Source: Bacilli bacterium
Lineage (GTDB): Bacteria > Bacillota_I > Bacilli_A > RF39 > UBA660
NCBI GenBank assembly: GCA_017484065.1
Contig: JAFUTX010000017.1
Coordinates: 430-64,429 of the forward strand
Length of the DNA: 64,000 bases
Reading direction: 5' to 3'
Below the pieces are notes generated by a model, which saw only the letters and a list, made by a program, of their open reading frames with translations, was not told the origin of the DNA and ran no database searches. Within the stretch, counting starts at the first letter, position 1. Each line of letters begins with the position of its first letter. This document shows positions 2,024-42,278 of this stretch, one piece after another. The position numbers and the translations under genes were made by a program.

Positions 2024-2100
2024 TTACTTATGAGCAATAGTATTTTAACTCATAGATATAAAATCTTTATTAATATTATAGAAAATCAGGGGTGATTTTT

Positions 2101-3201
2101 GTGTTAAAAACATATAAATATAGAATATATCCTAATAGTGTTCAAAAAGAACAAATAGTTAAAACATTTGGATGTTGTAGATTTGTTTATAATGTATTAC
2201 TATCATACCGTATAGAAAAATATAAGAATAATAATGTCAATATGAGTAAAATTGATTGTAATAATTATTGCAATAGAGTTTTAAAAGAAGAATATCAATG
2301 GTTAAAAGAAGTAGATAAATTTGCTCTTACTAATTCTATATATAATATGGATAACGCTTTTATTAACTTTTTTAAAGGTAATTGTAAATATCCTAAATTT
2401 AAAAAGAAACATAGTGATCATAAATCATATACAACTAATTATACTAATAATAATATAGTTGTAGATTTTGATAAAAATATAATAAAACTACCTAAATTAA
2501 AAAGTGTTAAAGCAGTTGTTCACAGAAAATTTAATGGTAACATTAAAAATGCTACTATAACACAAACTCCAACTGGTAAATATTTTGCATCAATATTAGT
2601 TGATACCAATATTGATACATTACCTAGGATAACTAAGACTATAGGAATAGATCTAGGAATAAAAGATTTAGTTATAACATCAAATGGAGATACTTATGAA
2701 AATATAAAACCATTAAACAAATTAAAAGAAAAATTAATTATGCATCAAAGAAGACTTTCAAAAAAAGTTAAAGGAAGTAGTAATTATAAAAAAGAAAAAT
2801 TAAAGATAGCATTACTCCACGAAAAGATACATAATACAAGATGTGATTACTTACATAAGATAAGTAGCAGAATAGTAAACGAAAACCAAGTTATTATTAC
2901 TGAAGACTTACAAATTAAAAATATGATAAAGAATCACAATTTATCATCAAGTATTATAGATGCATCATGGAGTATATTGTCAAACCAATTAGAGTATAAA
3001 TCAAGATGGTATGGAAGACAATATGTAAAAGTAGATAAATTCTACGCTAGTAGTCAAATATGTAGCAGCTGTGGTTATAAGAACAGTGATATAAAAGATT
3101 TATCTATAAGAGAATGGATCTGTCCAAATTGTGGCAAAGAACATAACCGTGATATAAATGCTGCTATAAACATACTACATCAAGGATTACAACTAGTATA
3201 A
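2101..3201 (+). CDS. tnpB: TnpB (OrfB_IS605) RNA-guided nuclease
   Basis: N-terminus is [18 protein letters not shown]. RuvC motifs are [14 protein letters not shown] and [11 protein letters not shown] zinc ribbon is present ([16 protein letters not shown]). The start is probably GTG at 2101, after AGGGGTG; the track starts at 2092. Confidence 0.9.
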
Positions 3202-18792: not shown

Positions 18793-21700
18793 CTAATTAT
18801 TTTTTAATGCAATGATTTTGCCATCCATAATAGAATAAAGATAAGCATTAATCTTTTTATTAGAAATACTTTCTATATATTCTTTATATCCATTAATCTG
18901 TTTTAAATAATTATCATCAACAATATTTTTTAATTTATAATCAATAATATCAATATGATCATCATATTCTAACATTAAATCGATTATACCATGGTGTTCT
19001 TCATTAATGCCCTCATAAACAAACTCATATTCTTGATAAACATTAGCATCTTTAATATTTTTAAATAATTCATTATTAAATAAATCATTTATCTTTTCTT
19101 TAATAAATTTATCCTCTATTAAATCTGGATTATAATTTTTAAAATCAAGCATTTCTAAAGTTTTATGAATTTTTAAACCAAGTTCAATGTTCTTACTAGT
19201 ACTTATATCAATTAATTCATTAATACTTTTAGAATAATGATTACTTTCTTTAGTTATGAATTCAATATTGAGTTCATTTACTTCCAAATTAGTATTAGTA
19301 CTACCTTTATACTCTTCTATCTTTTTTAAATATTTATAATCTTCTGTTATATTTAATTCATTCATATCAATTATACTAGTATAATCTTTTAAAGTATTTT
19401 TAATTGAATAAATAATATCTGCAAAAGAGCGATATTTTAGTCTTATATTATCATTAACTACAGTACTATTACTTAAATACTCTTTATCAGTATTAGGAAG
19501 AATTAGTATCATTTTTTCTTTAGCACGTGTAAGAGCTACATAGAATAATCTTATTTTTTCAGATATTTCTTCTAGAATATAGTTTTGTTTTAATAGTACT
19601 TTAAGAACGTTTTCTCTTTGTCCATCTTTATAGTAAGGTATAATAAAGCCATACTTATTATTAAATATAAACTTATCCTTAATATCGCTTATATTAAATG
19701 ATTTATATAGACCAGTATAGTAACAGATATGATATTCAAGTCCCTTACTTTTATGAATAGTCATTATTTTAACGCTATCACTACTATCAGATTTAACACT
19801 ATATTTCATATCGATATCTTTATCTACAATATGTTTAAAATATTCACATACTTCATTATATGAATACCCTAGTTCATCTAGATTACTAGCTATTTCTAAC
19901 ACTTTAGATAAGCGAACACTTCTAGCTTCAATATCTCCGATGAAAATCATTTTTTCATATATATTAGTACTTTCATAAATTAAATTAAATAACTCATAAT
20001 TAGTTAAACTATCTATTCTTTTAGCTATTTCATAAAAACATTTATATACTTCATTATCATAATAATTATGAGTATTAAACCAAGTAAATATGCAATTATC
20101 TTTAATATTAAATAGATAACTACGAGCTAAACTAGTTAAAGCATATTTAAATTCTGTATCTATAACTTTATTTTTTATCTTGCAAATAAGTACTAGTATA
20201 TTTTTTAATAAACTTAAATCTTCGCTATCTTTAAAAGATTCGTCTTTATATAAAGTTAAAGGAATACCAAAATATTCAAATACTTTTTTATAAGTATTAA
20301 AATCTTTAGTACGATCCATTAATATTACAAAATCATTATAAGTGATATCTCTCAAGTTACCAGCATCTTTATCAAATACCGGATAATGGTTACTTATTTT
20401 TTCTTTTATATCTTTAGCTACTGCAAATATTTCTATTTCTTCCTTATTAAATAGTATTTCTTTATCATAATTATAATATCTTATTTCAAAGTGATTATTC
20501 TCATTAGTACTTCCCTTTTCAATATATGATGAATTACCAAACACCATTTGATGAGTAGCTAAGTAGTCTGCTCCACCAATAAAATCATCCATTACTTTTG
20601 TAAATAAAAGATTAATATCTTCTAAGACTTCTTTTCTTGAACGAAAATTCTTTACTAAATCAATTTTATATCCGCCATTATTATTACTGTAATTGTCATA
20701 TTTAGATTTAAAAAGATAAGGATTTGCATTACGAAATCGATAAATAGATTGTTTTATATCCCCGACCATGTAAACGTTATTATTACTTATTAGATTAATA
20801 AATGTTTCTTGGATATCATTAGTATCTTGATATTCATCTATCATTATTTCTTTATATTTGTTTTTTAATTCGTCTTTAATAAAGGTATTATCTTTAACTA
20901 TTTTAATAGCCATTAAAGCTATATCTTGAAAATCAAATAATTCTTGTTCTAGTTTTATTTTATTATACTTTTTATTAAAACGATTAATAATATCTACTAT
21001 TACTTTTACATTATTCTTTGTAGATGCTATATTAGCAATTATTTCATCTAAAGAGCCATACTTACATACTATTTTTAATTCCTTTATCAAGTTGCTAATA
21101 ACTTCTTTAGCTTCTTTAACCTCATCAGTTGTTTTACTAAGTCTTGGTAATGTAACAATATTTACTCCCCTTATAACATCATCAGTTGATTCATAATTTA
21201 TGATGCCAGATATCGCCTCTAACATTTTATTATATTCATCATTAGTAGCTACTAAACCATAATTATTTAAAGCATCCTTAATCTCGGATATTTTTAATTC
21301 AATTATTTTAGAATATTCTTTAATAATATTTTCATAATTTTCTTTTTTATAATAACTATCTATATAATCATCTAAATATTTTTGATAATCTCCAATTCGT
21401 TCTAAATTAAATATAAAACTAGTAATAGCGTTCCTAATATCTAAGTCATCTTTATTGCAAAATTCATTAATAAACCTAATAAATTCACTATCATTTTCAT
21501 TGTAGTATTCTTCCATTACTTCATCTAAGATTTCTTCTTTTTTTATATTAATGATAGTATTATCAACTATTTTAATATTTTTACTAATCTTTAGCATATA
21601 ATGATATTTTTTTACGATACTTAAAGCAAATGAATCAAATGTAGTTATATAAGAGGTATCTATTTTATCAAGTTCATCTTTTAGTTCTGGAACTTTTTTT

Positions 21701-21912
21701 ATTGACTTTCTAATTCTTTCTTTCATTTCCCTAGCCGCAGCATTAGTAAATGTCAGAATTAATAGTTCATCAATATGTATACCTTGTTTTAATTTTTCAA
21801 TAACTCTTGTCGATAGTACAGCAGTTTTCCCAGAACCTGCTCCAGCACTTACAATTATATTGGTACCACTTTTTTCAATTGCTTCTAATTGTTCTTTAGT
21901 CCAAGTTGGCAT
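18793..21912 (-). CDS. addA: ATP-dependent helicase/nuclease AddA
   Basis: UvrD-type motifs AGAGSGKT and DEYQDTN. A C-terminal RecB-type nuclease is present (GIIDLM..IIDYKLK). The likely start is ATG at 21912. Confidence 0.85.
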   Translation of the reverse strand: MPTWTKEQLEAIEKSGTNIIVSAGAGSGKTAVLSTRVIEKLKQGIHIDELLILTFTNAAAREMKERIRKSIKKVPELKDELDKIDTSYITTFDSFALSIVKKYHYMLKISKNIKIVDNTIINIKKEEILDEVMEEYYNENDSEFIRFINEFCNKDDLDIRNAITSFIFNLERIGDYQKYLDDYIDSYYKKENYENIIKEYSKIIELKISEIKDALNNYGLVATNDEYNKMLEAISGIINYESTDDVIRGVNIVTLPRLSKTTDEVKEAKEVISNLIKELKIVCKYGSLDEIIANIASTKNNVKVIVDIINRFNKKYNKIKLEQELFDFQDIALMAIKIVKDNTFIKDELKNKYKEIMIDEYQDTNDIQETFINLISNNNVYMVGDIKQSIYRFRNANPYLFKSKYDNYSNNNGGYKIDLVKNFRSRKEVLEDINLLFTKVMDDFIGGADYLATHQMVFGNSSYIEKGSTNENNHFEIRYYNYDKEILFNKEEIEIFAVAKDIKEKISNHYPVFDKDAGNLRDITYNDFVILMDRTKDFNTYKKVFEYFGIPLTLYKDESFKDSEDLSLLKNILVLICKIKNKVIDTEFKYALTSLARSYLFNIKDNCIFTWFNTHNYYDNEVYKCFYEIAKRIDSLTNYELFNLIYESTNIYEKMIFIGDIEARSVRLSKVLEIASNLDELGYSYNEVCEYFKHIVDKDIDMKYSVKSDSSDSVKIMTIHKSKGLEYHICYYTGLYKSFNISDIKDKFIFNNKYGFIIPYYKDGQRENVLKVLLKQNYILEEISEKIRLFYVALTRAKEKMILILPNTDKEYLSNSTVVNDNIRLKYRSFADIIYSIKNTLKDYTSIIDMNELNITEDYKYLKKIEEYKGSTNTNLEVNELNIEFITKESNHYSKSINELIDISTSKNIELGLKIHKTLEMLDFKNYNPDLIEDKFIKEKINDLFNNELFKNIKDANVYQEYEFVYEGINEEHHGIIDLMLEYDDHIDIIDYKLKNIVDDNYLKQINGYKEYIESISNKKINAYLYSIMDGKIIALKNN

Positions 21913-24226
21913 ATTCATCACCACCTAAAAAATCTAAGTTCTTATATTCTTTTAATAAAACTAAATCTTTTTCTTTCATAAAACAAATATCTTTAAACTT
22001 GCAATACTTACATCCTTCATTATTAATGCCTATTTTTTTAGGATTAATATCAAACTTACCATTTAATATTTTATTAAAACTATCTATAACGTTATCTTCA
22101 ATTAATTTAGTTAATTTATTAATAGTTAAATCATCAATTACTTTACTATATTGGTAAAAACCTTTACTACTTTGTTTTAATCCTTTGATTATCTTGCTAT
22201 CATTATAGTTACTATCTAACTTTTTTAATACTTCAATATCACTATTACTGTAACCATATAGTTTTAAATTATTTTTCTTCTTAGTATCAATAACCTCGTT
22301 ACTATCAAGTAATCCATCATTATTTAATATTTTTTGTAAATAGAATCCTGCTATATGATAATCTTTAAATTTAGGATGATGTTTAACTAGATAAAGATAT
22401 ATAGGAAGTTGCATACCTATTCCATATTTAGAATTATATAGATTTATATCTGGATTACCAGTTTTATAATCAATAATAGCTAGAGAATCACCATCATATT
22501 TTATTTTATCTATAATACCAGTAAATGTATTATTACCATATAAAACATCTATTTTTTCTTCATATAAACTGCTCTTATAACTTGTATAAATATCTTGTTC
22601 TTTTATAGTTTTAATCACAAATTTTAGTTCTTCTTTTAACTTTTTTAAAAAGAAATTTTCTTTATTAGTTAGTTCTCTATTTAATATAGCATTATTCCAA
22701 CAAGTATCAAAATCAAAATCATCATTAAAAGATTTTTGTAAAATATCATGATATACATTACCAATAAATATCATAAATGTTTCTTCAAAATAATTTAAAT
22801 GTAATACATTATTTAAATAGTATCTAAAATTACATCTATTATAATTATCTAAACTAGAATACGATAAAGTTAATCTATTATTTAGGTATTCTTTTAACAT
22901 ACTATTATCAATATTAGTATAGTTATTATCATATTTAAGATACTGGTTATTCTTATAATTATTAGCTAATACACTCATGTTTGTATTAATAGTTCCATAT
23001 TTGTAATACTCATCATACATTTTAGCAAGTTCTATATTATTATAAAGATTACTATTATTATAGTTATTGTTATCTACATCTATTATTTCATAATTTAATA
23101 TATCATTTATATTACTTATATAAACTTCTCCTCTGTCATCATATTCTTTATAAGTAATATATAAGTTTTTAATTGATTTAATTAATCTACTATATTTATT
23201 TATATTATTTTTCTTTATTTCTTCACTAGTAAATAACCCTAATTTTTCTTTTTCATAATCATTAAAATAGTCTTCATCTTTTTTTATTTTAGGTAGTTCG
23301 TTTTGATTAAAACCTAATAAAAATACATATTTATTAACATCTACTATTTCAGATATATCTATTTCATTAATAGCATTAGTATATTTAATACTTTCTTTTT
23401 TAGAATTCTTTAACTCATCAATAACTAAGTCTTTAACTAATAAATAATCTTTACACCAGACATATTTATTATATATATTTACTATGTGATTATATATTTT
23501 CTCAGTATCTTTATCATTAATTATTTCTTTTATTTTATTTAATGTATTAACTATATTAGATTCATATTCTTTTATAAAGGTTTGAACAATCTTTGTGCTA
23601 TAAATACTTACATTATCATTTAAATTAATTGGTAAATTAAATATATAAGAGTATTTTTTAAAAAGATTACGATAACTACTATTTAAGTTAGATATATAAA
23701 TATCATTAATACTAATACCATCTTTTATTAATGATACTATTTTATTGATACAAAATATAACTTCTTCTTCACTCGTCTTGCATTTATATATACTATTACT
23801 ATATACATTAGTATTATTTTCATAATATTCAATATCAGTTATTTCTTTTAATTTATTAATTATATTCATTTCAAATCTACTATATTCTCTATTATCTAAA
23901 ACAATCTTATACTGTTTTAAACTATTTATAAATAATTTATTCTTTATTAATAAATTATTTTTCTCTAATTCATTTTTGATATTAAATAAAAAATCTATTT
24001 TATCATCAGTATAATATTCATTAAGATAAATTAAATTATTCAAGTATATTCTAGCTATATCAACATTCATATTATATTTATTAACTAAATAATAAATAGT
24101 TTTTTCGTCATAAGTAAAATACAATTCTTTTAATAGCTCATTAAAAGTAATATATTTAATATTTATTAATTCATTTTTCTTTAAATATTTATTTTTATTA
24201 TCTGTTATAAATAATGTTTTAATCAT
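21896..24226 (-). CDS. addB: AddB-type subunit (short, no Walker A) with an Fe-S/nuclease C-terminus
   Basis: Nuclease motif IIDYKTG. Four cysteines are present (C in YNRCNFRYY plus CKYCKFKDIC). It overlaps the addA start. No GxGKT motif was seen. Confidence 0.75.
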   Translation of the reverse strand: MIKTLFITDNKNKYLKKNELINIKYITFNELLKELYFTYDEKTIYYLVNKYNMNVDIARIYLNNLIYLNEYYTDDKIDFLFNIKNELEKNNLLIKNKLFINSLKQYKIVLDNREYSRFEMNIINKLKEITDIEYYENNTNVYSNSIYKCKTSEEEVIFCINKIVSLIKDGISINDIYISNLNSSYRNLFKKYSYIFNLPINLNDNVSIYSTKIVQTFIKEYESNIVNTLNKIKEIINDKDTEKIYNHIVNIYNKYVWCKDYLLVKDLVIDELKNSKKESIKYTNAINEIDISEIVDVNKYVFLLGFNQNELPKIKKDEDYFNDYEKEKLGLFTSEEIKKNNINKYSRLIKSIKNLYITYKEYDDRGEVYISNINDILNYEIIDVDNNNYNNSNLYNNIELAKMYDEYYKYGTINTNMSVLANNYKNNQYLKYDNNYTNIDNSMLKEYLNNRLTLSYSSLDNYNRCNFRYYLNNVLHLNYFEETFMIFIGNVYHDILQKSFNDDFDFDTCWNNAILNRELTNKENFFLKKLKEELKFVIKTIKEQDIYTSYKSSLYEEKIDVLYGNNTFTGIIDKIKYDGDSLAIIDYKTGNPDINLYNSKYGIGMQLPIYLYLVKHHPKFKDYHIAGFYLQKILNNDGLLDSNEVIDTKKKNNLKLYGYSNSDIEVLKKLDSNYNDSKIIKGLKQSSKGFYQYSKVIDDLTINKLTKLIEDNVIDSFNKILNGKFDINPKKIGINNEGCKYCKFKDICFMKEKDLVLLKEYKNLDFLGGDEYANLD

Positions 24227-24284
24227 TATTACCACCTTTATATATTGTACTAATTTTTTAGAAAGAAAAAAAGCCCTAAAGGAC

Positions 24285-27200
24285 TTATTTCCATGCTGGA
24301 CCTACTCCATCAGCAACAATACATTTCTTACTAGTACATTCATCTGATTGTAACCAAGTTTTAAATAGTTTACTAATATCTCTATTACTACTTCCTAATA
24401 AACCATCTAAATAACTACTAGTACAAACAACATTTTTATACTTGATAACTGTCTTATCATTTTTATATTGATTAGTAGTATCTATTATATATTGTACATC
24501 ATTATCAGATTGTATACCAACAATATCATAACATGATAATGTATCATTAGTATATCCATTTTTATTATTATCTTCCCTAATTTGTCTTATTATACTCGGA
24601 GTTAATTCAAACTTATATTCAGCTTCTGCTTGGTATGTAGCTTCCTCACTCTTTTTCATTGAATTATATTTATCAGTTTCATAATAAGATGAAAAACCTT
24701 GTTTTGGATTAGGATCAGGATTATCTAAAGATACTTGTTTAAAATTAACATTTAAGTTTACATCAGATGTAGAGCAATTATTACCAAAACATTCTGTAGT
24801 ACAGAATAATGAATCACATCCACCATTATCATCATCCGTTGAACCTGTTTTTCCTCCTGTGCTACCAATATCACATTTATCGTTTTTATAGTTTTGCTCA
24901 CAACAAGTATTCTTATTACTATCTATTTTTAATTTATCACTACAACACTTAGTACCTTTGCCATCAACTACATAACTTTCAGTAGGACAATTACTAAAAT
25001 CACATGCTCTCATTTCACCAGATGCCACTTTATCTTGGCAACATTCTCTATTACAACATTCACCTTCTGAAGCATCTATCGTAGTTAAACACTTATTACA
25101 TTGCCCAGAACTAGTATCAAAATCTTCTAGACTACAATTACTCTTGTATTCATCTTCTGTTGTTTCATAATAATATGATGAAATTCCCCAAGAGCGATAA
25201 TATCTGCCATTAATTAAATAATAATTATACTTTGAATATGTACTTTGATTACAACATTTTAGTTCTTCTTTGGCTACATCTTCACATTCATTTAATAAGC
25301 TATTATATTTTTCTTTACAACAATAAACGCCATATCTATCTTTAGTATTACAATCATCATCAGTAGTACCAGAATCCGTACATTTAAAGTGGTTGGCATA
25401 ATATTTTTCAATACAACATGATTTACCACTAGAATCAGTTACACTTCTACTACATGGGCCATTATCTGTTGATCCTCCACCGCTAGGATAGTTACCACCA
25501 TTACCACCACCACTATTATTACCAATATTATAAGTACAAGCATAAACATATGGAGCATTATCTAATAGTGATTTACTGTGTTCATTTTCAGTTCCTATTA
25601 ATCTACCAGTATTACCTGTATCATAGAACTCTCCTAAGTTTTCTATAAATATTTTTATATCATACGTTCCATTAGGAGTAGAAGATGATATAGGAAGTCC
25701 ATTGGTAAATATTTCATAATTTTCATCATCTAAAGTACCATTATAAGCTTTTATTTTTCCTATATTATTAATATCAGTACCTAAATATACTTGATATTGT
25801 TGTTTTGGTTTATATTGAATTTCTTTCGTTATAGTAGCTTTAATATAATTATTTGTTGGTATTCTTACTTCTTTAGCTAAATCACTAAAGAATTGATTAC
25901 AATTGCTACAACTAGAAGAATTAATACTACTTAAATCATATAAACTATAGCGAATACTATCAGCATTTTCTCTTTCTTCTGATGGATATTCGGTTGGATA
26001 ATTAGAACAATTATTAAATTTTGATTCTATTTTAGACTCTATAGTAATATTTCCAACCGGAGCACTACATTCCCATAGTTTTACTAATTTGTCTTTATTT
26101 AATGATGGTTCTAGAATACCTACACTTTCACCTGCTATTTTTTTATTTAACAAATCTATATAACTTTCATCATAAGTATAGTACGCATTTGGTTCTTTTA
26201 AATCTAAATTATCATACCATCCCGAACAATTATTTATTTGTTCAATAATCGATTTTAATTTATTTTGATAATACCAGACATTAGCTTTAGCACTATCAAC
26301 ATCGCTTTTTAATGTATTTGGATTGTAATCACCTACATAATAAGCAGGGCTGTAAGTGGTAATATATCTAGTTTCAAAAGTATTAGTAGTATTTTGACAA
26401 TTAACAGTTTTATTTATTGAATCATATGTACAATTATCATAATTTATTGTTTTAGAACATACTTCACCTTGATTTATTCCATTAACTATATCATCGTCAC
26501 ATCCACCATTATTTGTATTATATAAATTGTAGTATTTACTATAATTTGTATATGCATTAACTAAATAAGTTAAAGTCTGATTTATATCACTAATCATATT
26601 ATTACTATTAGACTTTTCATAGCAAGTTTTAGTACCGGTCAAATTTAACAAATATTTATCTTTATAAATAGATTTATATGAGCCACCCGACTCAGTTCTA
26701 TTAGTTTGAGCTGAGCTCCATGAAGACAATCCATATCTAAATGTATAATCTTCTTTACAATAAACAGTACAATAGTTATTATTTTTAAAACCATCTAGTA
26801 TATAAGAATTTCCTTTTTCATCCACTGCTTTATCCTTATCTTTTCCAAAGAAACAAGCATACGTATTAGTTGGTCCAGTAATCCCTGCATTATAAGAATA
26901 ATTATCACAATTATCTGCTAAACTGCTTTTTGTTTCACATGAGCCACAATAATTACTGTAATTTGAATATGGTGAACTATCTCGTGTTTCATCATAGTAC
27001 TTGTCTTTATATGCATTACAACAACCATTAGCAAAATAAGTAGGTTCATCTACTACATCACCATTAAATGTATATTGTTTAAATCCATTTGAATCAAGTA
27101 TTGTACAATCATTAGCTATTTTAGGTAGCGAAAATTCAAAATAAATATTATTTTTACTGTCAAAAGAATTTTCAAAAAATCCGATTAATCTTGCAGAAGA

Positions 27201-28754
27201 TGTATTTACTTTATCAGTAGCAATGCCACTTGCTTGATTTAATACTATCATTCGATCAAAATTTTTCTTAAATTTGTATGGAATAGCCAACTTCACTGAG
27301 AAATTTTGACCGGCAATATTTCTAAAGTCACCTTCCACAGTATAGGTTATTTTAAATCCATCTTTAGTTTCGTCTATTTGTTCTGTACCATCTCCATTAT
27401 ACTTAATATTACCATTTTTATCATATTTATATACTTTATCCATTTTTTCAGATTTCATTGAACAATTACCATAAGGAACGATGCACTCACTTAAATGGTC
27501 ATTATTAAAGTCATTTCTATCTAACTCAGTTGTATCCTTATCATAAATAACAATCATCGTAGTTGATAGTCTTAAATTTTTAGCTTGAGTATTTGTAATA
27601 ACATAATCACCATTTTCATCAACAGTCGGTTTATTAATCTTAGTATATTCAGTAGCAATTGGTTCTTTTTGCTCAAATGTCCAAACTCCAGCATATTGTC
27701 TAGTTGTTTTATAATTTTCGTCTATTAAATATGCTTTAATAGTATCAGTATCTTTGTAATTTTCTTCGTTATCAGCATATTTATGGGCTTTTTCAAACAT
27801 TTTAAAAGCTTCAGTTAAATAATCATATGTATCAGGAAGATAATGTTCTTCATCTACTAATGAATTGTAATTACAAAACACCCATCCATCTTTTTTACAA
27901 TCAAAATTTGGTTGTTTATGATTTTCTTGTTTATAATTTCCATAATCTTTTATAAATTTTACAAATGCATCATGTCTTTCACGATAACCTATAGCATTAG
28001 ATTGATTACATGATTGACTACCACATTCAAAATATACTTGGTCATCTTGAGCCATATCATAATAATATGCTAAAAATTTAACTACAAATTCAGCTACAAT
28101 TGGATTATTAGTTAATAATATATTATGATAATTAAATAATTCATTACGAGTTGTTCCATCTTCTAATTTATCCCTTAGATTTAATTCATTCCATTTATTA
28201 TTTAGATAATATAATGCCATGTCAAATCGATTAGTATTTTTTGAAAACTCTAAATTAGTTGGATCTATTTCTCTTGTACACCACCAAGTATCAATATCTA
28301 ACATATCCTTAGCTGGATCTATATTATACCCATAAACTTTTGGTTCATTAATAGTGCCTATTCTATCAGTATATTTCAATATATAATAAGAATCAGCATA
28401 TAGCGGATGATTTATTTCATAATTAGTCTGAACACCATTTACAACTTTGCCGTAATTACCAGATATTTTTTTAGCATTATATTGTAAAATATTAGAGTGA
28501 TAGTATTTTACAATCGTATTTAACTTTTGTTGTTTTTCACTGCTAAGTTCTGCTTTAAGTGAAGCATCAGTAGCATTTTTAATTTGATTATCGTAATCTT
28601 TTTCATAATACTCATCAAAACTGTGCAAATCTCCTAAAAGATCATTCGTCATACGAAATTCACTTGGGAAATCAGGGCATACACTTTCAGCATGAGTTAT
28701 ACTAGGAAACAATAGCAACAATAAAAAACATATAATTCTATTTCTTTTTAACAT
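24285..28754 (-). CDS. Giant secreted, extremely cysteine-rich protein (1489 aa), unknown family
   Basis: The signal peptide is MLKRNRIICFLLLLLFPSITHA. There are dozens of cysteines, including at least 8 CC doublets (CCNAY, CCIEK, CCKEK, CCNQS, CCNRECCQD, CCSDK, CCEQN). No sorting signal or TM is visible at the C-terminus. Confidence 0.7.
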   Translation of the reverse strand: MLKRNRIICFLLLLLFPSITHAESVCPDFPSEFRMTNDLLGDLHSFDEYYEKDYDNQIKNATDASLKAELSSEKQQKLNTIVKYYHSNILQYNAKKISGNYGKVVNGVQTNYEINHPLYADSYYILKYTDRIGTINEPKVYGYNIDPAKDMLDIDTWWCTREIDPTNLEFSKNTNRFDMALYYLNNKWNELNLRDKLEDGTTRNELFNYHNILLTNNPIVAEFVVKFLAYYYDMAQDDQVYFECGSQSCNQSNAIGYRERHDAFVKFIKDYGNYKQENHKQPNFDCKKDGWVFCNYNSLVDEEHYLPDTYDYLTEAFKMFEKAHKYADNEENYKDTDTIKAYLIDENYKTTRQYAGVWTFEQKEPIATEYTKINKPTVDENGDYVITNTQAKNLRLSTTMIVIYDKDTTELDRNDFNNDHLSECIVPYGNCSMKSEKMDKVYKYDKNGNIKYNGDGTEQIDETKDGFKITYTVEGDFRNIAGQNFSVKLAIPYKFKKNFDRMIVLNQASGIATDKVNTSSARLIGFFENSFDSKNNIYFEFSLPKIANDCTILDSNGFKQYTFNGDVVDEPTYFANGCCNAYKDKYYDETRDSSPYSNYSNYCGSCETKSSLADNCDNYSYNAGITGPTNTYACFFGKDKDKAVDEKGNSYILDGFKNNNYCTVYCKEDYTFRYGLSSWSSAQTNRTESGGSYKSIYKDKYLLNLTGTKTCYEKSNSNNMISDINQTLTYLVNAYTNYSKYYNLYNTNNGGCDDDIVNGINQGEVCSKTINYDNCTYDSINKTVNCQNTTNTFETRYITTYSPAYYVGDYNPNTLKSDVDSAKANVWYYQNKLKSIIEQINNCSGWYDNLDLKEPNAYYTYDESYIDLLNKKIAGESVGILEPSLNKDKLVKLWECSAPVGNITIESKIESKFNNCSNYPTEYPSEERENADSIRYSLYDLSSINSSSCSNCNQFFSDLAKEVRIPTNNYIKATITKEIQYKPKQQYQVYLGTDINNIGKIKAYNGTLDDENYEIFTNGLPISSSTPNGTYDIKIFIENLGEFYDTGNTGRLIGTENEHSKSLLDNAPYVYACTYNIGNNSGGGNGGNYPSGGGSTDNGPCSRSVTDSSGKSCCIEKYYANHFKCTDSGTTDDDCNTKDRYGVYCCKEKYNSLLNECEDVAKEELKCCNQSTYSKYNYYLINGRYYRSWGISSYYYETTEDEYKSNCSLEDFDTSSGQCNKCLTTIDASEGECCNRECCQDKVASGEMRACDFSNCPTESYVVDGKGTKCCSDKLKIDSNKNTCCEQNYKNDKCDIGSTGGKTGSTDDDNGGCDSLFCTTECFGNNCSTSDVNLNVNFKQVSLDNPDPNPKQGFSSYYETDKYNSMKKSEEATYQAEAEYKFELTPSIIRQIREDNNKNGYTNDTLSCYDIVGIQSDNDVQYIIDTTNQYKNDKTVIKYKNVVCTSSYLDGLLGSSNRDISKLFKTWLQSDECTSKKCIVADGVGPAWK

Positions 28755-35510: not shown

Positions 35511-37046
35511 TTACAAATACTTTTCTTCAACTAAATTATTTTTTATTTTTTCATTTATTACTAAATACTTAGTTGTAAGTAACATAGCTGCTACAGAACT
35601 AGCATTTTTTAGTGCTGTAATTATTACTTCAACAGGGTCAATTATATCAATATTGTCTTCCAAAGAATTATTCTTTAAATTGATTATTTTTTGATAATTA
35701 CTTTTTCTTATTAATTCCTCCATAGTTTTATTATCTACGCCACTATTTATCATTATCTTATTAAATGGTTCGCTTAGTACCTCTTTTAAAATGGCATCTC
35801 CAGCATTATTTACATTTAATTCATTGCTTATTTTTAACAAAGTAATACCTTCTCCTGTAACAACTCCCATGCTTGCTATATGTATAGCATTTAAAGCATC
35901 CTCTAAGCGCATTATTTTTTCTCTTATTTCTACCTTAGTTGATCCTCCTACAAATAAAGTTGCTATTCCTGTATTTAATTTAGCTAATCTATTTGCTATA
36001 AATTCTTTATCATAATCACTATTACAATTATCAAACTCATTCTTTAGTTCTTTTATATATTTTTTATCTATATCATTATATATTACTAATTCATCTTTAT
36101 TAATTGTTATGTATTTACATAAGCCTAAGTCTGCACAATCCACACTTTCATAATCAATATTCTTAATATTTGCTGTAGTAATTGTTGAAATATCTTTAAT
36201 AATACTTTCTTTTCTTGTAGCATATTCTGGTAAATTAAATAAGTAGATATTCTTATCATTGTGTAAATTATATACTAATAATTCTTGAGTTAATACATTA
36301 TCATAATCTTCTGCTAATATTACTATTTTTTTATTATTCACTATGCCTTCATTAATAATATCACTTATTTGTTCTAAACTATTTAAATAACCTTTGATAA
36401 GTAAAATATAAACATCTTCTAATCTTATTTCTAAATCATTAGAAAAATATAGATTAGATACATTATTAAGTTCAATACTGTAACCATTTTTGATTTCATA
36501 ATATGTTTTATCATTATTACTTTCTTTTAAGATAATTGCATATTTGCTTTTAACTATTTCAAATAATTGAACTAATATTTTAGCTAACTCTAAATCGTTA
36601 CAAGAAGTACAAGCCACATTAATTAAATCTTCTTTATTAGGTTTTCTTTTTTCATTATTAATCATTTCTACAACTTCTTTAGTAGCAGATATTAACTCTT
36701 TTTTTAAAACTATGGCATCCTTACCATTATTAATTAAATCTAAACCATGCTTAAATATACTTTGTAATAGCACTAAAGTTGTTGTAGTCCCATCTCCGAC
36801 TAATTGATTAGTTTTATTAGCAGCTTCTTTCAAAATATCTAAAATAGTATTAATTTTAATATCATCACTTTCAATTGAATTAGCAATAGTTACCCCATCA
36901 TTTGTAATATATGGACTTACCTCATCATTATTAATTATTACATTATTACCACTTGGACCTAATGTAGATGATACTGTATCACATAGTAAATTAACTGCAT
37001 CTAACATTACTTTTTTTAATTCTTCGTTATTTATTACCTTCTTCAT
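35511..37046 (-). CDS. Divergent GroEL/Cpn60-family chaperonin paralog (no groES, no GGM tail)
   Basis: Motifs TLGPSGNNVII, ITNDGVTIANSIE and LVGDGTTTT match GroEL N-terminal and equatorial motifs. VTGEG replaces the canonical VPGGG. The protein ends NNLVEEKYL. The likely start is ATG at 37046 after GGAGG, overlapping the upstream gene. Confidence 0.75.
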   Translation of the reverse strand: MKKVINNEELKKVMLDAVNLLCDTVSSTLGPSGNNVIINNDEVSPYITNDGVTIANSIESDDIKINTILDILKEAANKTNQLVGDGTTTTLVLLQSIFKHGLDLINNGKDAIVLKKELISATKEVVEMINNEKRKPNKEDLINVACTSCNDLELAKILVQLFEIVKSKYAIILKESNNDKTYYEIKNGYSIELNNVSNLYFSNDLEIRLEDVYILLIKGYLNSLEQISDIINEGIVNNKKIVILAEDYDNVLTQELLVYNLHNDKNIYLFNLPEYATRKESIIKDISTITTANIKNIDYESVDCADLGLCKYITINKDELVIYNDIDKKYIKELKNEFDNCNSDYDKEFIANRLAKLNTGIATLFVGGSTKVEIREKIMRLEDALNAIHIASMGVVTGEGITLLKISNELNVNNAGDAILKEVLSEPFNKIMINSGVDNKTMEELIRKSNYQKIINLKNNSLEDNIDIIDPVEVIITALKNASSVAAMLLTTKYLVINEKIKNNLVEEKYL

Positions 37047-37779
37047 TACTATCCTCCATCTCAATTATATAATTCCAATATTTTTTAGGCATAAAGTTCA
37101 TTTGACACTTTAAGTTTTTTCTTTCTTTTATAGCAACAGTTTTAAAAAATGTTTTCCATAAATCTTCAACTATGTCTTCTTCACTATTTTTATCTAAATT
37201 AAGTTTTATTATTTCATCTTCTGTTAAATACATTATCTTTTTTAAATCATATAAAGCATAATTATTTCTTTTAACATCTTTAATAATCCAATAATCTTTA
37301 TTAAGTCTTTTTTTAAAATGATTAGCAAGTATTTCTATAACATTATTAGTAGATTCGTATTCTGCATAATAAAAATTATTTTTCATTTGTTTAAATCTTA
37401 AAAAGCCTTTTAATTTATGGGCTTCATTACCTACATTATGAGCAATCTTCAGTATTTTATTTACGCAATTTAAATCACGATGATTAAATATTTTACTTTT
37501 ATATTTTAAAGCATTTTTAATAAAGTAATAGATAATTAATTCTTTATTGTCTACACTGGATAGATAACAATAATAAACAATATGAATGACATTATAAGAT
37601 AAATAATCAAATAGATTAATCTTCTTTTCTAAATTAAGCTGTACGGGTTCATCTAATAAATTTATTTTATATTCTTTATCACTTTTAATATCACTAGGAG
37701 TTATTTTTAAATAGATTAAATCTCCTACTAAAGATATTAATGAGTTAAAACTACCATTATATAAATAAGTTTTATTCAT
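37027..37779 (-). CDS. DUF4130-type 'probable DNA metabolism protein', partner of the radical SAM gene
   Basis: The N-terminus is YLYNGSFNSLISLVGDL, typical of this family. It overlaps both neighbours. Confidence 0.65.
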   Translation of the reverse strand: MNKTYLYNGSFNSLISLVGDLIYLKITPSDIKSDKEYKINLLDEPVQLNLEKKINLFDYLSYNVIHIVYYCYLSSVDNKELIIYYFIKNALKYKSKIFNHRDLNCVNKILKIAHNVGNEAHKLKGFLRFKQMKNNFYYAEYESTNNVIEILANHFKKRLNKDYWIIKDVKRNNYALYDLKKIMYLTEDEIIKLNLDKNSEEDIVEDLWKTFFKTVAIKERKNLKCQMNFMPKKYWNYIIEMEDSNEEGNK

Positions 37780-38986
37780 TAAATAAGCACAACTGTCTAC
37801 CCGTACTATTAATACTTGCTTTATCTTCTAAAACTAAATTCTTTTCAATAAAGTTTTTATTAAATATTGAAGATGCAGCAAAATATTTACCATTACACGT
37901 AATAAAATACTTAGCTCTTTTTAATGATATTCCCATTTTCTTTAAGTCGTTAAACTCTATTTTGAATACTCGTCTAGCTAATATAATTTTTTTGGCTGAC
38001 TTAGGACCAATACCAGGTATTTTTAATAAATCATAATAACTAGACTTATTAATTTCTTTAGGAAACTCATTTAAGTGTCTTAAAGCCCAATCAGCTTTAG
38101 GATCAATTAAAACATTAAAGTTAGGATTATTCTTATCTAATAAATTATCTACTTGGTAATTATAAAATCTTAGTAACCAGTCCGCCTGATAAAGGCGATG
38201 TTCACGAGTTAAAGGTGGAAGTGATAAAGAAGGTAATAGCTTGTCTTTATTAACCGGAATATATGCAGAATAAAATACTCTTTTTAAATCATATCTGTTA
38301 TATAAAGATTCACTTTTGCTTAATATATCTAAATCGGTTTCATGAGTTGCTCCTATTATCATTTGCGTACTTTGACCAGCCGGTGCAAAATTCCTACTCT
38401 TATTTTCTTTAACACTTTTCATAATTTTACTAATGTTATCATTATTTTTATCTGGCGCTAGTAATTTCAAAGAAGAATCAGTTGGTAATTCAATATTAGC
38501 ACTAATTCTATCTGCTAGTCTTCCTAATTTCTTTAGTAAATACTCACTTGCTCCTGGTATAGCTTTTACATGGATATAGCCGTTAAAATGATATTTACTA
38601 CGAAGTAAATACAACGTTTCAATAAGACGTTCCATAGTGTAGTCGGCACTTTTAATAATACCAGAACTTAAAAATAAACCTTCAATATAGTTTCTTTTAT
38701 AAAAATTCATAGTAATCTCGCATATTTCTTCCGGAGTAAATATAGCTCTTTTAACATTATTACTTTTACGATTAATACAGTATTTACAGTCAAATATACA
38801 AGAATTAGTCATAAGTATTTTAAGTAATGATATACACCTACCATCACTACTAAACGAATGACAGATTCCACTATAAGCTACACTACCTACTCCATCTTTG
38901 TTTGAACGTGTACTGCCACTAGATGAACAAGAGGCATCATATTTGGCACTATCACTAAGAATAATTAGTTTTTCTTTTAATGTCAT
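37772..38986 (-). CDS. Putative DNA modification/repair radical SAM protein with a C-terminal helix-hairpin-helix
   Basis: CxxxCxxC motif (CIFDCKYC) and HhH motif LLKIPGIGPKSAKKI. The likely start is ATG at 38986, after AGGTGG. Confidence 0.75.
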   Translation of the reverse strand: MTLKEKLIILSDSAKYDASCSSSGSTRSNKDGVGSVAYSGICHSFSSDGRCISLLKILMTNSCIFDCKYCINRKSNNVKRAIFTPEEICEITMNFYKRNYIEGLFLSSGIIKSADYTMERLIETLYLLRSKYHFNGYIHVKAIPGASEYLLKKLGRLADRISANIELPTDSSLKLLAPDKNNDNISKIMKSVKENKSRNFAPAGQSTQMIIGATHETDLDILSKSESLYNRYDLKRVFYSAYIPVNKDKLLPSLSLPPLTREHRLYQADWLLRFYNYQVDNLLDKNNPNFNVLIDPKADWALRHLNEFPKEINKSSYYDLLKIPGIGPKSAKKIILARRVFKIEFNDLKKMGISLKRAKYFITCNGKYFAASSIFNKNFIEKNLVLEDKASINSTGRQLCLFNE

Positions 38987-39014
38987 ATTTACCACCTATG
39001 TATAGTATACAATA

Positions 39015-39778: not shown

Positions 39779-40138
39779 ATGAAAAAGTTATTAAATTATT
39801 TAAAAAATATTGGCTACTACATTGCTATTATCTTTATCATTACTTTAGTTTTATCTCTGTTGAATCTCTTTGGTTTAAACAAAAATGTAACAACAGTTAT
39901 TTCATTAATAAGTATGGTAATCTTATTCTTAGTATTAGGATATATTCATGGTAAAAAAGCTAGTAGTAAAGGGTTTATAACTGGATTAAAGCTAGGTATA
40001 GTTATGCTTATTATTTTACTAATATTAAATCTAATATTCTTTAGAACCAAGTTTAGTATTAATACTATAATCTATTATTTAATACTACTTACTTCATCTT
40101 CTTTTGGAGGTACGATTGGTATAAATAAAAAGAAATAA
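39779..40138 (+). CDS. Small 4-TM membrane protein (YrzE-like)
   Basis: About 120 aa with four hydrophobic segments, ending GGTIGINKKK. Confidence 0.45.
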   Translation: MKKLLNYLKNIGYYIAIIFIITLVLSLLNLFGLNKNVTTVISLISMVILFLVLGYIHGKKASSKGFITGLKLGIVMLIILLILNLIFFRTKFSINTIIYYLILLTSSSFGGTIGINKKK

Positions 40139-40155
40139 TACTAATGTACTATTTC

Positions 40156-40521
40156 CTAAATCCATCTAGATATATTAATTTTCCTTGTTGCAAACATAAT
40201 ATAGTTTTCAAAAATATCAATTATACTATCAACTATATTTCTTAAAACATCTCCTGTTTTCTTAACTCTAAGAGTTAAGATTTTTTCTTTCATTTCTTTA
40301 CGAAACATATTATCTTCTATATATTTATTAATTGCGGTGTCAAAAACTTTTAATTTATTTAATTCATCTAAATTATTACTATTTATTTTGCAAACATAAT
40401 TTTCATATATTTTTATTATTTTTTCCGTAATAATATCATCTTCTGTATAATCAGTATTAACTATCTTATAATAATTAGGACAATACTTTAAGATTTCTTT
40501 ATTATTATTCACTACTATCAC
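40156..40521 (-). CDS. Hypothetical protein
   Basis: ORF only. Confidence 0.4.
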   Translation of the reverse strand: MIVVNNNKEILKYCPNYYKIVNTDYTEDDIITEKIIKIYENYVCKINSNNLDELNKLKVFDTAINKYIEDNMFRKEMKEKILTLRVKKTGDVLRNIVDSIIDIFENYIMFATRKINISRWI

Positions 40522-40596
40522 CTTACTATCAAGTTTACTACATCCTTATATTATTGTCAAAAACTTTTTTTACTGATATAATTATTTAGAAAGTAG

Positions 40597-41562
40597 ATGG
40601 TTGTTTTGACAAAGAAAAAGAGAAAATTAAAAAAAGGTGTTTATAAATTTTTAGTACTTCTTATTATAGTAGGATTACTTGGTTACAGTGGAATAAAATT
40701 ATATAAAGATTATAAATATAAACAAACATATGAATATAAATTATTGCAACATGGTTATAAATTAGAAGAAGTTAAAATTTTAGAAAAAAACTTTGATAAT
40801 AAAAGATTAGATTGGTTACTTTCTGTACCTAAGAATAAAACTGTCCTAAATCTATTAAAAGAAAAGTATTATATAGCTAATAAATTAGATGATTATTTAG
40901 CTTATGAAAAAGAAAATGCTAACTTATCTTTAACTGAAATAGTTTTAAAAGTAAATACATTAACTAATTATGATTTTTATGAACATACAATAGAATCAGA
41001 TATATCAAAAGGTATTTTATTAAATTGTAATAAGTATTATCGCTTACCGGAAGATTATGTACCTGAGGACTTAGTCACTATTAACACTAACTATGCTTTT
41101 GGAACAAGACAAGCTACTAAAGAAACAGTAGATGCATATATAAATATGTGGAATGCTGCAAAAGAAAATGGTATTCATTTAATGGTTAATTCAGCTTACA
41201 GATCATACTCTGATCAAGAAGCTGTTTATAATAGTTATAAAGCAAAAAATGGTGAAGCATATGCTGATAAATATGCTGCTAGACCTGGGCATAGTGAGCA
41301 TCAAACTGGTTTATCATTAGATATTTTTAGTATAGATAATACTTCTACAAAAACTTTTGAGAACTCTGCAGCTTATGCATGGTTAAAAGATAATGCTCAT
41401 AAGTATGGATTTATCTTACGTTATTCTAAAGATAAAGAAAATATAACTGGCTATAGCTTTGAAGCTTGGCACTATCGTTATGTAGGTGTTGAAGCTGCAA
41501 CTAAAGTTTATGAAGATGACATAACTTATGATGAGTACTACGCTTACTATATAGAAAAATAG
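40597..41562 (+). CDS. Membrane-anchored D-alanyl-D-alanine carboxypeptidase (VanY / peptidase M15B)
   Basis: Motifs SAYRSY, ARPGHSEHQTGLSLDI and EAWHYRYVG. Confidence 0.8.
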   Translation: MVVLTKKKRKLKKGVYKFLVLLIIVGLLGYSGIKLYKDYKYKQTYEYKLLQHGYKLEEVKILEKNFDNKRLDWLLSVPKNKTVLNLLKEKYYIANKLDDYLAYEKENANLSLTEIVLKVNTLTNYDFYEHTIESDISKGILLNCNKYYRLPEDYVPEDLVTINTNYAFGTRQATKETVDAYINMWNAAKENGIHLMVNSAYRSYSDQEAVYNSYKAKNGEAYADKYAARPGHSEHQTGLSLDIFSIDNTSTKTFENSAAYAWLKDNAHKYGFILRYSKDKENITGYSFEAWHYRYVGVEAATKVYEDDITYDEYYAYYIEK

Positions 41563-41585
41563 CAACATGATTGCTATTTTTTTAT
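41559..41585 (+). terminator. Intrinsic terminator of the vanY-like gene
   Basis: ATAGCAA-catga-TTGCTAT followed by T7. Confidence 0.75.
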
Positions 41586-41621
41586 AAAAAAGATTCCCGT
41601 CAACCACAATTTTTCAAGCAA

Positions 41622-41646
41622 ATAAAAAAAGCAAATCACTTTGCTT
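41622..41646 (-). terminator. Intrinsic terminator ending the large non-coding transcript
   Basis: The minus strand reads AAGCAAA-gtga-TTTGCTT followed by T7. On the + strand no T-run follows the hairpin. Confidence 0.7.
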
Positions 41647-42243
41647 AAATAATAAATTTACAATGGCTATCATTTGGTAAACTTTGGGTCTTAGGTCAAG
41701 CAGGATTTCCCTAGTTTCTACAAGACCGTTACCAGTCTAGCGGTTCCCCATTTCTAGAAACTAATACAAAAATTCTGTATGGCTTGATCACCACTTAGTA
41801 CCCACTGCAATCCCAAACGACATCACTCTAGGAGATTTCCTCACCAAGCTTTATTATTAATTCTTTTTTGCAAAATAGATTTCATTATGCAGTTTACTAA
41901 TTAGTTTGGCCAAATTAATTAGTCAGCTCATAAATCCCAACTATTTCACTCAAGACAAGCTACGCTACTCATAACTTTCGCCACATAGTAGGTTTCAATC
42001 CTAAGTCGTAGATGATCCATCAGCTTATCACGTATAGGTCTTCCACAAGTTTAGGTCTCCAAAATAATGGGCTTAATTTATATGCCATTATAAACCTCCC
42101 ATTATTCTATCCTTCCAGCATCCACCCCAAACTGGGCGTAAGAAGCAAACACCAGAAGTTTCACAGGTATGCTCTTTAACGGTGGTTTATTCCCGTCTTC
42201 ATAATAAAGGATTTGACTAGAATAGTGTGCCATCTCCATTACG
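41622..42243 (-). ncRNA. Candidate large (~620 nt) structured non-coding RNA of unassigned class
   Basis: There is no ORF of 60 aa or more in any frame. G+C is 45-47% in two lines I counted and 30% in a third, against ~25% in the flanks. It has a dedicated promoter and terminator. Several 8-9 bp local helices are present (see finding). Confidence 0.6.
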
Positions 42244-42249
42244 TGAACA

Positions 42250-42278
42250 ATTGTATCACATTTTTATAATTTTGTCAA
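42250..42278 (-). promoter_or_regulatory. Strong extended -10 promoter driving the large ncRNA
   Basis: The minus strand reads TTGACA (42278..42273), a 17-nt spacer ending TGa, then TACAAT (42255..42250). It lies directly after the gltX stop. Confidence 0.65.

Follow-up and report, generated by a model that had tools for sequence, protein, structure and literature searches.

An OLE RNA gene without an adjacent oapA in an uncultured member of the Bacilli

Identity and expression signals of the RNA gene

We analyzed a 64-kb stretch of DNA (referred to as the window) in which the interval between the convergent genes vanY and gltX had been flagged as a large structured RNA from G+C contrast, a promoter, a terminator, and local helices alone. 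As the initial annotation had stated, no open reading frame (ORF) of at least 60 aa is present within 41622..42278, where the longest ORFs encode 55 and 45 aa. The predicted compositional contrast was also recovered, with a G+C content of 36.2% across this interval and 37.6% across the RNA itself compared with 25.5% in the rest of the window. The features of the locus are listed in Table 1.

Table 1. Features at the ole locus, with positions in the window
Feature	Position	Strand	Details
OLE RNA gene (RF01071), full-length architecture	41647..42249	-	603 nt; Rfam match, covariation
Sigma-70-type promoter with extended -10, TTGACA-17-TGaTACAAT	42250..42278	-	11/12 plus TG
Probable intrinsic terminator for ole, with an A/U-rich stem of 7 bp, a GUGA loop, and U7	41622..41646	-	Sequence; hairpins of relatives
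GGCC palindrome in the L9.3 loop, predicted kissing-loop dimer bridge B3	41908..41911	-	Sequence; PMC12286853
Truncated P13 hairpin, AUACA-GAAUUUU-UGUAU	41764..41780	-	5-bp stem, GAAUUUU loop
P14 and P14.1, GUAA (GNRA) tetraloop kept	41712..41763	-	Consensus pair list
Rearrangement junction directly 3' of ole, at the usual place of oapA	41563..41621		Synteny break relative to loci L150 and L151

The whole window was searched against all 4,227 Rfam families using cmscan. The model for OLE (Ornate Large Extremophilic) RNA matched the gene with a score of 359.2 bits (E ~1e-102; gathering score, 50), and the match ran from end to end of the model (positions 1-616 of 616). The only other structured-RNA match in the window was one tRNA. 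At the OLE locus, no other family exceeded its gathering score, permissive filters included; ROOL, GOLLD, RNase P, tmRNA, and group I/II introns, which the initial annotation had proposed to check together with OLE, all fell below threshold. The element is an OLE RNA, a known class, and an ordinary member of that family. OLE had been named first among the candidate classes, and the right family was therefore among those proposed from the sequence. The initial annotation had left a choice between a large-RNA class in an unusual context and a new class; the former holds, as the RNA is OLE and oapA is not adjacent, and the 359-bit match excludes the latter.

The OLE family was reportedly discovered in 2006, by Puerta-Fernandez. 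It has been catalogued in 2,822 Bacillota species (PMC11332333; Fernando & Breaker 2024). For comparison, we searched species-representative genomes with the conserved motif GGGAAATCCTNNNNGACCTAAG and collected at least 120 OLE loci; this set is a sample, not a census. The window RNA, at 603 nt, is close to the median length of the OLE sequences among the matches listed (610 nt). Its nearest OLE loci among the matches listed are in metagenome-assembled genomes (MAGs) labelled Bacilli or Tenericutes, and the nearest named GltX proteins (80-82% identical) belong to Candidatus Coprovivens, class Bacilli. The isolate names of relatives, which refer to mouse, rabbit, and Hadza gut catalogues, suggest a gut origin. 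OLE hosts belong to the Bacillota and are typically anaerobes or extremophiles. We are highly confident that the window carries a functional OLE RNA gene, whose host is probably an uncultured gut bacterium of low G+C content in the class Bacilli.

OLE-oapA loci were also present in MAGs labelled as non-Bacillota: L042, L037, L089 (Muribaculaceae), and L033 (Actinomycetota). The OLE RNA of L042 is among those closest to the window OLE in the matches listed. These loci are probably mis-binned contigs, as has likewise been suspected for 24 non-Bacillota OLE matches (PMC11332333).

The promoter proposed in the initial annotation is the top-scoring site in the region and begins 15 nt past the gltX stop codon. 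Among the matches listed, 16 of the 17 closest relatives have a promoter of at least 11/12 that is equally placed with respect to OLE, and in 15 of these it includes the TG; the promoter of L057 is weaker (9/12). The near-perfect TTGACA-17-TGnTATAAT at the 5' end of OLE implies that ole would be transcribed very strongly and constitutively in this clade of gut Bacilli. The proposed terminator (AAGCAAA-GUGA-UUUGCUU-U7) is present in the sequence but is weak (-8.4 kcal/mol, z = -1.6) and was not called by a consensus scanner, because its stem has only two G-C pairs. Terminator-like hairpins followed by a U-run occur at the equivalent place, between ole and oapA, in L070 and L105, which supports the assignment in the window. 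The ole transcript would therefore span roughly 620 nt, from its own strong promoter to a weak intrinsic terminator. Given the promoters and terminators of relatives, a self-contained promoter-RNA-terminator unit is normal in the clade and not specific to the window.

Structure and conservation of the OLE RNA

Helix numbers were deduced from the text of PMC9723947 and PMC12286853 rather than from their figures. The local helices that had been read by eye agree in large part with the Rfam structure: the P9.3 hairpin (41896-41903 with 41916-41923) was correct at 8 of 8 pairs, and P14 (41712-41720 with 41755-41763) at 8 of 9. P6 (42062-42070 with 42097-42105) was recognized as a helix but with one arm 2 nt out of register, and the inner helix 41725-41728/41741-41744 was given the wrong partner, since the consensus pairs 41725-41728 with 41733-41736. 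The palindrome in L9.3 belongs to a tetranucleotide that covaries among GGCC, GAUC, and AGCU and forms a dimer bridge in the cryo-EM structure (PMC12286853). In alignment A1, which contains 18 sequences (the window and 17 close relatives among the matches listed), L9.3 is AGCU in L040, L012, and L057.

The tip of P13 is truncated. In P13, a GNRA tetraloop together with a bulge of one nucleotide forms the primary OapB site (PMC7936274). Both are missing here, with gaps at the model's four loop positions; the primary OapB-binding site is thus absent from the window OLE. A P13 GNRA loop was found in ~68 of the 75 parsed OLE RNAs among the matches listed and is missing in the window, L070, L054, L056, L005, and L107. 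Since L070, L054, L056, and L005 share the loss with the window, it is a trait of the clade, and in these four relatives oapA is adjacent to ole. OapB is not universal, as ~60% of OLE hosts have it. Reduced-genome gut clades without OapB and OapC have been described (PMC11332333), and the loss in the window's clade is consistent with that description. Judging from the RNA, OapB is probably not a partner in the window's lineage; with the OapB-bound GNRA loop gone, the complex of this lineage probably has fewer protein partners.

The P14/P14.1 region, a weak secondary OapB site in H. halodurans (PMC7936274), includes CTGGTAACG, which is invariant in alignment A1. The window lacks the small hairpin of model positions 424-435, and the other clade members in A1 have no room for it. 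A K-turn around P5 binds OapC or bS21 (PMC9723947). J4a/5 and J5/6 are variable in the window's clade in A1, and J5/6 contains 42109, where the window has one of its four mismatches to conserved nucleotides.

OLE RNAs are ~600 nt long, with roughly 25% of their nucleotides nearly invariant, and we examined the window copy against this hallmark. At columns at least 95% conserved in the 107 other near-full-length OLE RNAs listed, the window kept 162 of 166 nucleotides. Elsewhere, among the matches listed, the median is 165, the 5th percentile 162, and the minimum 149, and the window's count is within the bottom 10% of the sample. Standard pairs are formed at 139 of the 154 pairs (90%) of the Rfam consensus structure. 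The 18 closest relatives among the matches listed score 360-411 bits against RF01071, and the window has the lowest score of the 19 clade members compared, at the low edge of the range rather than as an outlier. Constraint on this copy may be slightly relaxed.

Covariation had been put forward as a check on the helices, and it supports them. In alignment A1, 83 of 150 pairs change on both sides, and none of 500 shuffles reached the observed covariation values; 86.8% of cells are paired, compared with 39-48% when partners are slid by one to three columns. The nearest relative among the matches listed is L070, whose OLE is 80% identical to that of the window. The two differ by 24 fully compensated double changes; five pairs are disrupted in the window alone and eight in L070 alone. 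Identity between them is 76% in paired columns and 91% in unpaired columns, and this comparison gave no sign of rate acceleration in the window OLE. The pattern of substitutions argues that the window OLE is a structured RNA under continuing purifying selection.

Compared with other full-length OLE RNAs (RF01071), the window RNA shares the full covariance-model match, the length of ~600 nt, the helices, the conserved nucleotides, the L9.3 GGCC, and a probable Bacillota host. It differs in that oapA is neither adjacent nor within 64 kb and that the P13 GNRA tetraloop and bulge and the 424-435 hairpin are missing. Two OLE variants are described from reduced-genome gut clades: variant 1 (TANB77), in which P7, P8, and P9 are shortened and the OapB site at the P13 tip is often missing, and variant 2 (RF39-type), in which P7 and P8 are entirely absent (PMC11332333). 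Like both variants, the window OLE comes from an uncultured low-G+C lineage, probably of the gut, and neither an OapB nor an OapC gene turned up in the window; like variant 1, it has lost the OapB site at the P13 tip. However, its P7-P9 are near consensus length, so it is probably not a typical variant 1, and P7 and P8 (assigned to 198-254 and 262-290) are paired and about full length, so it is not variant 2. ROOL and GOLLD are also large structured non-coding RNAs in Bacillota, but the window RNA matches neither Rfam model.

Genomic context of ole and a stand-alone oapA

In the sampled loci, ole is followed by an ORF for a conserved membrane protein of ~200 aa with the motifs FHSMA, FCNDVIGDISG, and GGKAxGK. 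This protein, OapA, has a weak, sub-threshold CNNM match, which fits its distant kinship to MpfA (PMC12265935). We built an OapA profile from 99 OapA sequences that follow ole among the loci listed. The profile matches 113 of the OLE loci examined (among the at least 120 listed), and oapA lies directly downstream of ole on the same strand in 109 of the 111 assessable loci listed; the gap between them has a median of 41 nt. An ole separated from oapA is therefore rare (~1-2% of the sample, among the loci listed), and ole and OapA have been described as "almost completely mutually inclusive" in genomes (PMC11332333). Among the exceptions to strict adjacency, the 1.9 kb downstream of ole in Aneurinibacillus tyrosinisolvens (L120 5522-8000) contain no OapA ORF, and in L057 (2851-5112) ~1.1 kb, with one gene, separates ole from oapA.

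The initial annotation had noted that no gene for an OLE-associated membrane protein is adjacent to the RNA. We found no OapA homolog in the entire 64 kb: the best profile match in the window had E = 0.29, which is noise, and tblastn also returned nothing. A gene for a DUF3792/TIGR04086 membrane protein (119 aa; 39779..40138, +) is located 1.5 kb from ole, and we considered it as a candidate OapA. It has no homolog in the at least 120 other OLE loci, it is unrelated to the ~200-aa protein encoded after ole elsewhere, and nothing links it to OLE. Among window ORFs of at least 80 aa, those inside larger genes being skipped, none encodes MpfA/CNNM, OapB (KOW), or OapC (L7Ae).

We then compared the flanks of ole with relatives. 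A sister lineage (L150) is 92.6% identical at the nucleotide level over 40166-41566 and then diverges, 4 nt past the vanY stop codon; beyond the breakpoint, it carries an M23 peptidase gene. The alignment of a more distant relative (L151, 74%) ends at 41561. On the other side, the relatives with 82-83% identical GltX lack ole; the feature 75-100 nt past their gltX is a protein-coding gene. The neighbors of ole in the window are not syntenic with those of the at least 120 sampled OLE loci listed, except for a distant vanY after oapA in L119. From these comparisons, ole is a ~665-nt cassette set between two blocks that are not its neighbors elsewhere, with the breakpoint at the usual place of oapA. 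In H. halodurans, by contrast, ole lies inside a long operon, whereas in the window it is a stand-alone cassette. No repeats flank the cassette, the only ones reported being OLE helices and the vanY terminator, and no mobile-element remnants were found around it. The vanY terminator is a ~16-bp hairpin with a T-run (41550-41586, +; -14.8 kcal/mol, z = -6.2) that overlaps the vanY stop codon, and the breakpoint relative to L150 and L151 falls inside this hairpin.

The arrangement is real and lineage-specific. Logan contigs from three runs match the window with 100% identity and together cover both junctions (L002, 35317-41975; L157, 46442-41948; L158, 45248-41946). L157 and L158 run from gltX into OLE, L002 enters OLE from the other side, and all overlap inside OLE. 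The three contigs end within ~30 nt of each other, at 41946-41975; conserved OLE k-mers from co-resident related species, which would branch the assembly graph, are the likely cause.

We then looked for the partner gene elsewhere by searching the OapA of L070 against 5.8 billion proteins and inspecting the contexts of several matches. P0017, P0013, and P0042 belong to ordinary ole-oapA pairs of other species and were rejected as the window's OapA. In contrast to these pairs, P0056 (199 aa) has no detectable OLE upstream, where another gene ends 77 nt away. The gene for P0056 is on contig k141_2409538 of ENA assembly ERZ27256833, which also contains the window's contig (k141_1837352); in addition, P0056 is found in Logan run SRR12529357 along with the window's exact GltX. 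Its G+C content is 23-24%, compared with 25.6% for the window. Its best match among the sampled OapAs listed is that of L070, which mirrors the OLE tree. The simplest explanation for an ole without oapA and an oapA without ole in one assembly is a single genome. On the basis of co-occurrence, composition, complementary gene content, and phylogenetic congruence, P0056 is probably the cognate OapA of the window's genome, encoded at an unlinked locus. Two points temper this link: runs and assemblies whose accession numbers lie close by also contain related species in which ole and oapA are paired as usual, and ERZ27256833 may be the assembly of one of the SRR125293xx runs, in which case the two co-occurrences are not independent.

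The oapA of a sister species in another sample (P0057; 88% identical to P0056) also stands alone. The ole-less oapA (P0056, P0057) lies 77 nt downstream of a PD-(D/E)XK gene (PDDEXK_2, Rpn-type transposase family; L146 1-917, L147, L148, and L149 3-1560), and a CDP-alcohol phosphatidyltransferase gene comes after it in L146. Breaks just upstream of this oapA in three assemblies suggest a repeated element, by which ole and oapA could have become separated. The window itself contains no paralog of the Rpn/PDDEXK_2 element that might have served as a recombination substrate.

Alternative explanations, proposed function, and other genes in the window

Some of the observations above could be read differently. 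The absence of oapA from 64 kb, the lowest Rfam score in the clade, the four mismatches at near-invariant positions, and the lost P13 tip would all fit a decaying relic, that is, a non-functional ole left in an organism that lost OapA. We find this hard to credit, since the copy retains 90% of pairs and 162 of the 166 invariant positions, it differs from L070 by 24 compensated double changes with broken pairs no more frequent in it, its consensus promoter persists, the P13 tip is equally lost in four relatives with adjacent oapA, and the same assembly contains an oapA that lacks ole. It is also highly improbable that OLE is functional in a genome truly without OapA and that P0056 comes from a co-resident organism without ole. 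P0056 is tied to the window's genome circumstantially rather than by physical linkage, and several related species inhabit the same samples. However, this explanation demands two simultaneous exceptions to the mutual inclusivity of ole and OapA (PMC11332333), whereas one genome with both orphans needs none, and composition, phylogenetic congruence, and co-occurrence favor one genome.

A chimeric contig joining ole to vanY might be suspected in a MEGAHIT-style (k141) metagenome contig, the more so as the Logan contigs break inside OLE. Yet contigs from three different runs agree with the window at 100% identity and overlap inside OLE, which makes an assembly artefact vanishingly improbable. Size and G+C enrichment alone would equally suit a new class of large structured RNA, or ROOL, GOLLD, RNase P, tmRNA, or a group I/II intron. 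We give such identities practically no weight: OLE alone was found at this locus among 4,227 Rfam families (E ~1e-102), and a match to the full model with no other family above threshold excludes the new-class reading.

We therefore favor an intact OLE whose oapA is unlinked, and propose how such a system might work. The ole gene would be transcribed from its own extended -10 promoter and end at the weak intrinsic terminator. The RNA would fold into the ornate OLE structure and could dimerize, as the L9.3 GGCC kissing loop is intact, and OapA, supplied from the stand-alone P0056 locus after the rearrangement beside ole, would hold it at the membrane. The resulting membrane ribonucleoprotein may help the cell withstand short-chain alcohols, cold, excess Mg2+, and poor carbon sources. 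Folding, dimerization, membrane binding through OapA, and the stress role are proposed for the window OLE by homology with H. halodurans. Experiments in that species are the only source for a membrane-localized OLE ribonucleoprotein with stress phenotypes (PMC12265935), and the tolerance it confers extends to alcohols, cold, Mg2+, and growth on poor carbon sources (PMC12265935, PMC10898510).

The OLE class has long been known; what this locus adds is a natural case, rare among the sampled genomes, of ole uncoupled from oapA in a copy that still looks fully selected. Confirmation of the unlinked oapA would show that OLE and OapA can be partners without adjacency or co-transcription, and the uncoupled case could then help in choosing minimal or divergent systems for study of the OLE complex. 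A bolder claim, which we consider very unlikely, is that an intact OLE is maintained by purifying selection without any OapA; its weaker version has ole and oapA transcribed separately from unlinked loci. Were the former true, OLE could function without its supposedly indispensable membrane anchor; were the latter true, co-location would be dispensable and ole could relocate as a self-contained ~665-nt cassette.

Several other genes in the window drew our attention. An IS605-family OrfB/TnpB gene (2092-3201, +) encodes OrfB_IS605, Cas12f1-like TNB, and HTH domains. A 517-aa Cpn60/GroEL-like protein (35511-37064, -) does not reach the curated cut-off for any of the NCBIfam GroEL models and may be a divergent chaperonin paralog; its gene adjoins a putative DNA-repair pair (37027-38995) of a radical-SAM protein (TIGR03916) and a DUF4130 protein (TIGR03915). 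A 1,489-aa ORF (24285-28754, -) has no Pfam match at E <= 1e-4, and downstream of it lies an AddA/AddB-like helicase-nuclease pair (UvrD plus PDDEXK_1; 18793-24235).
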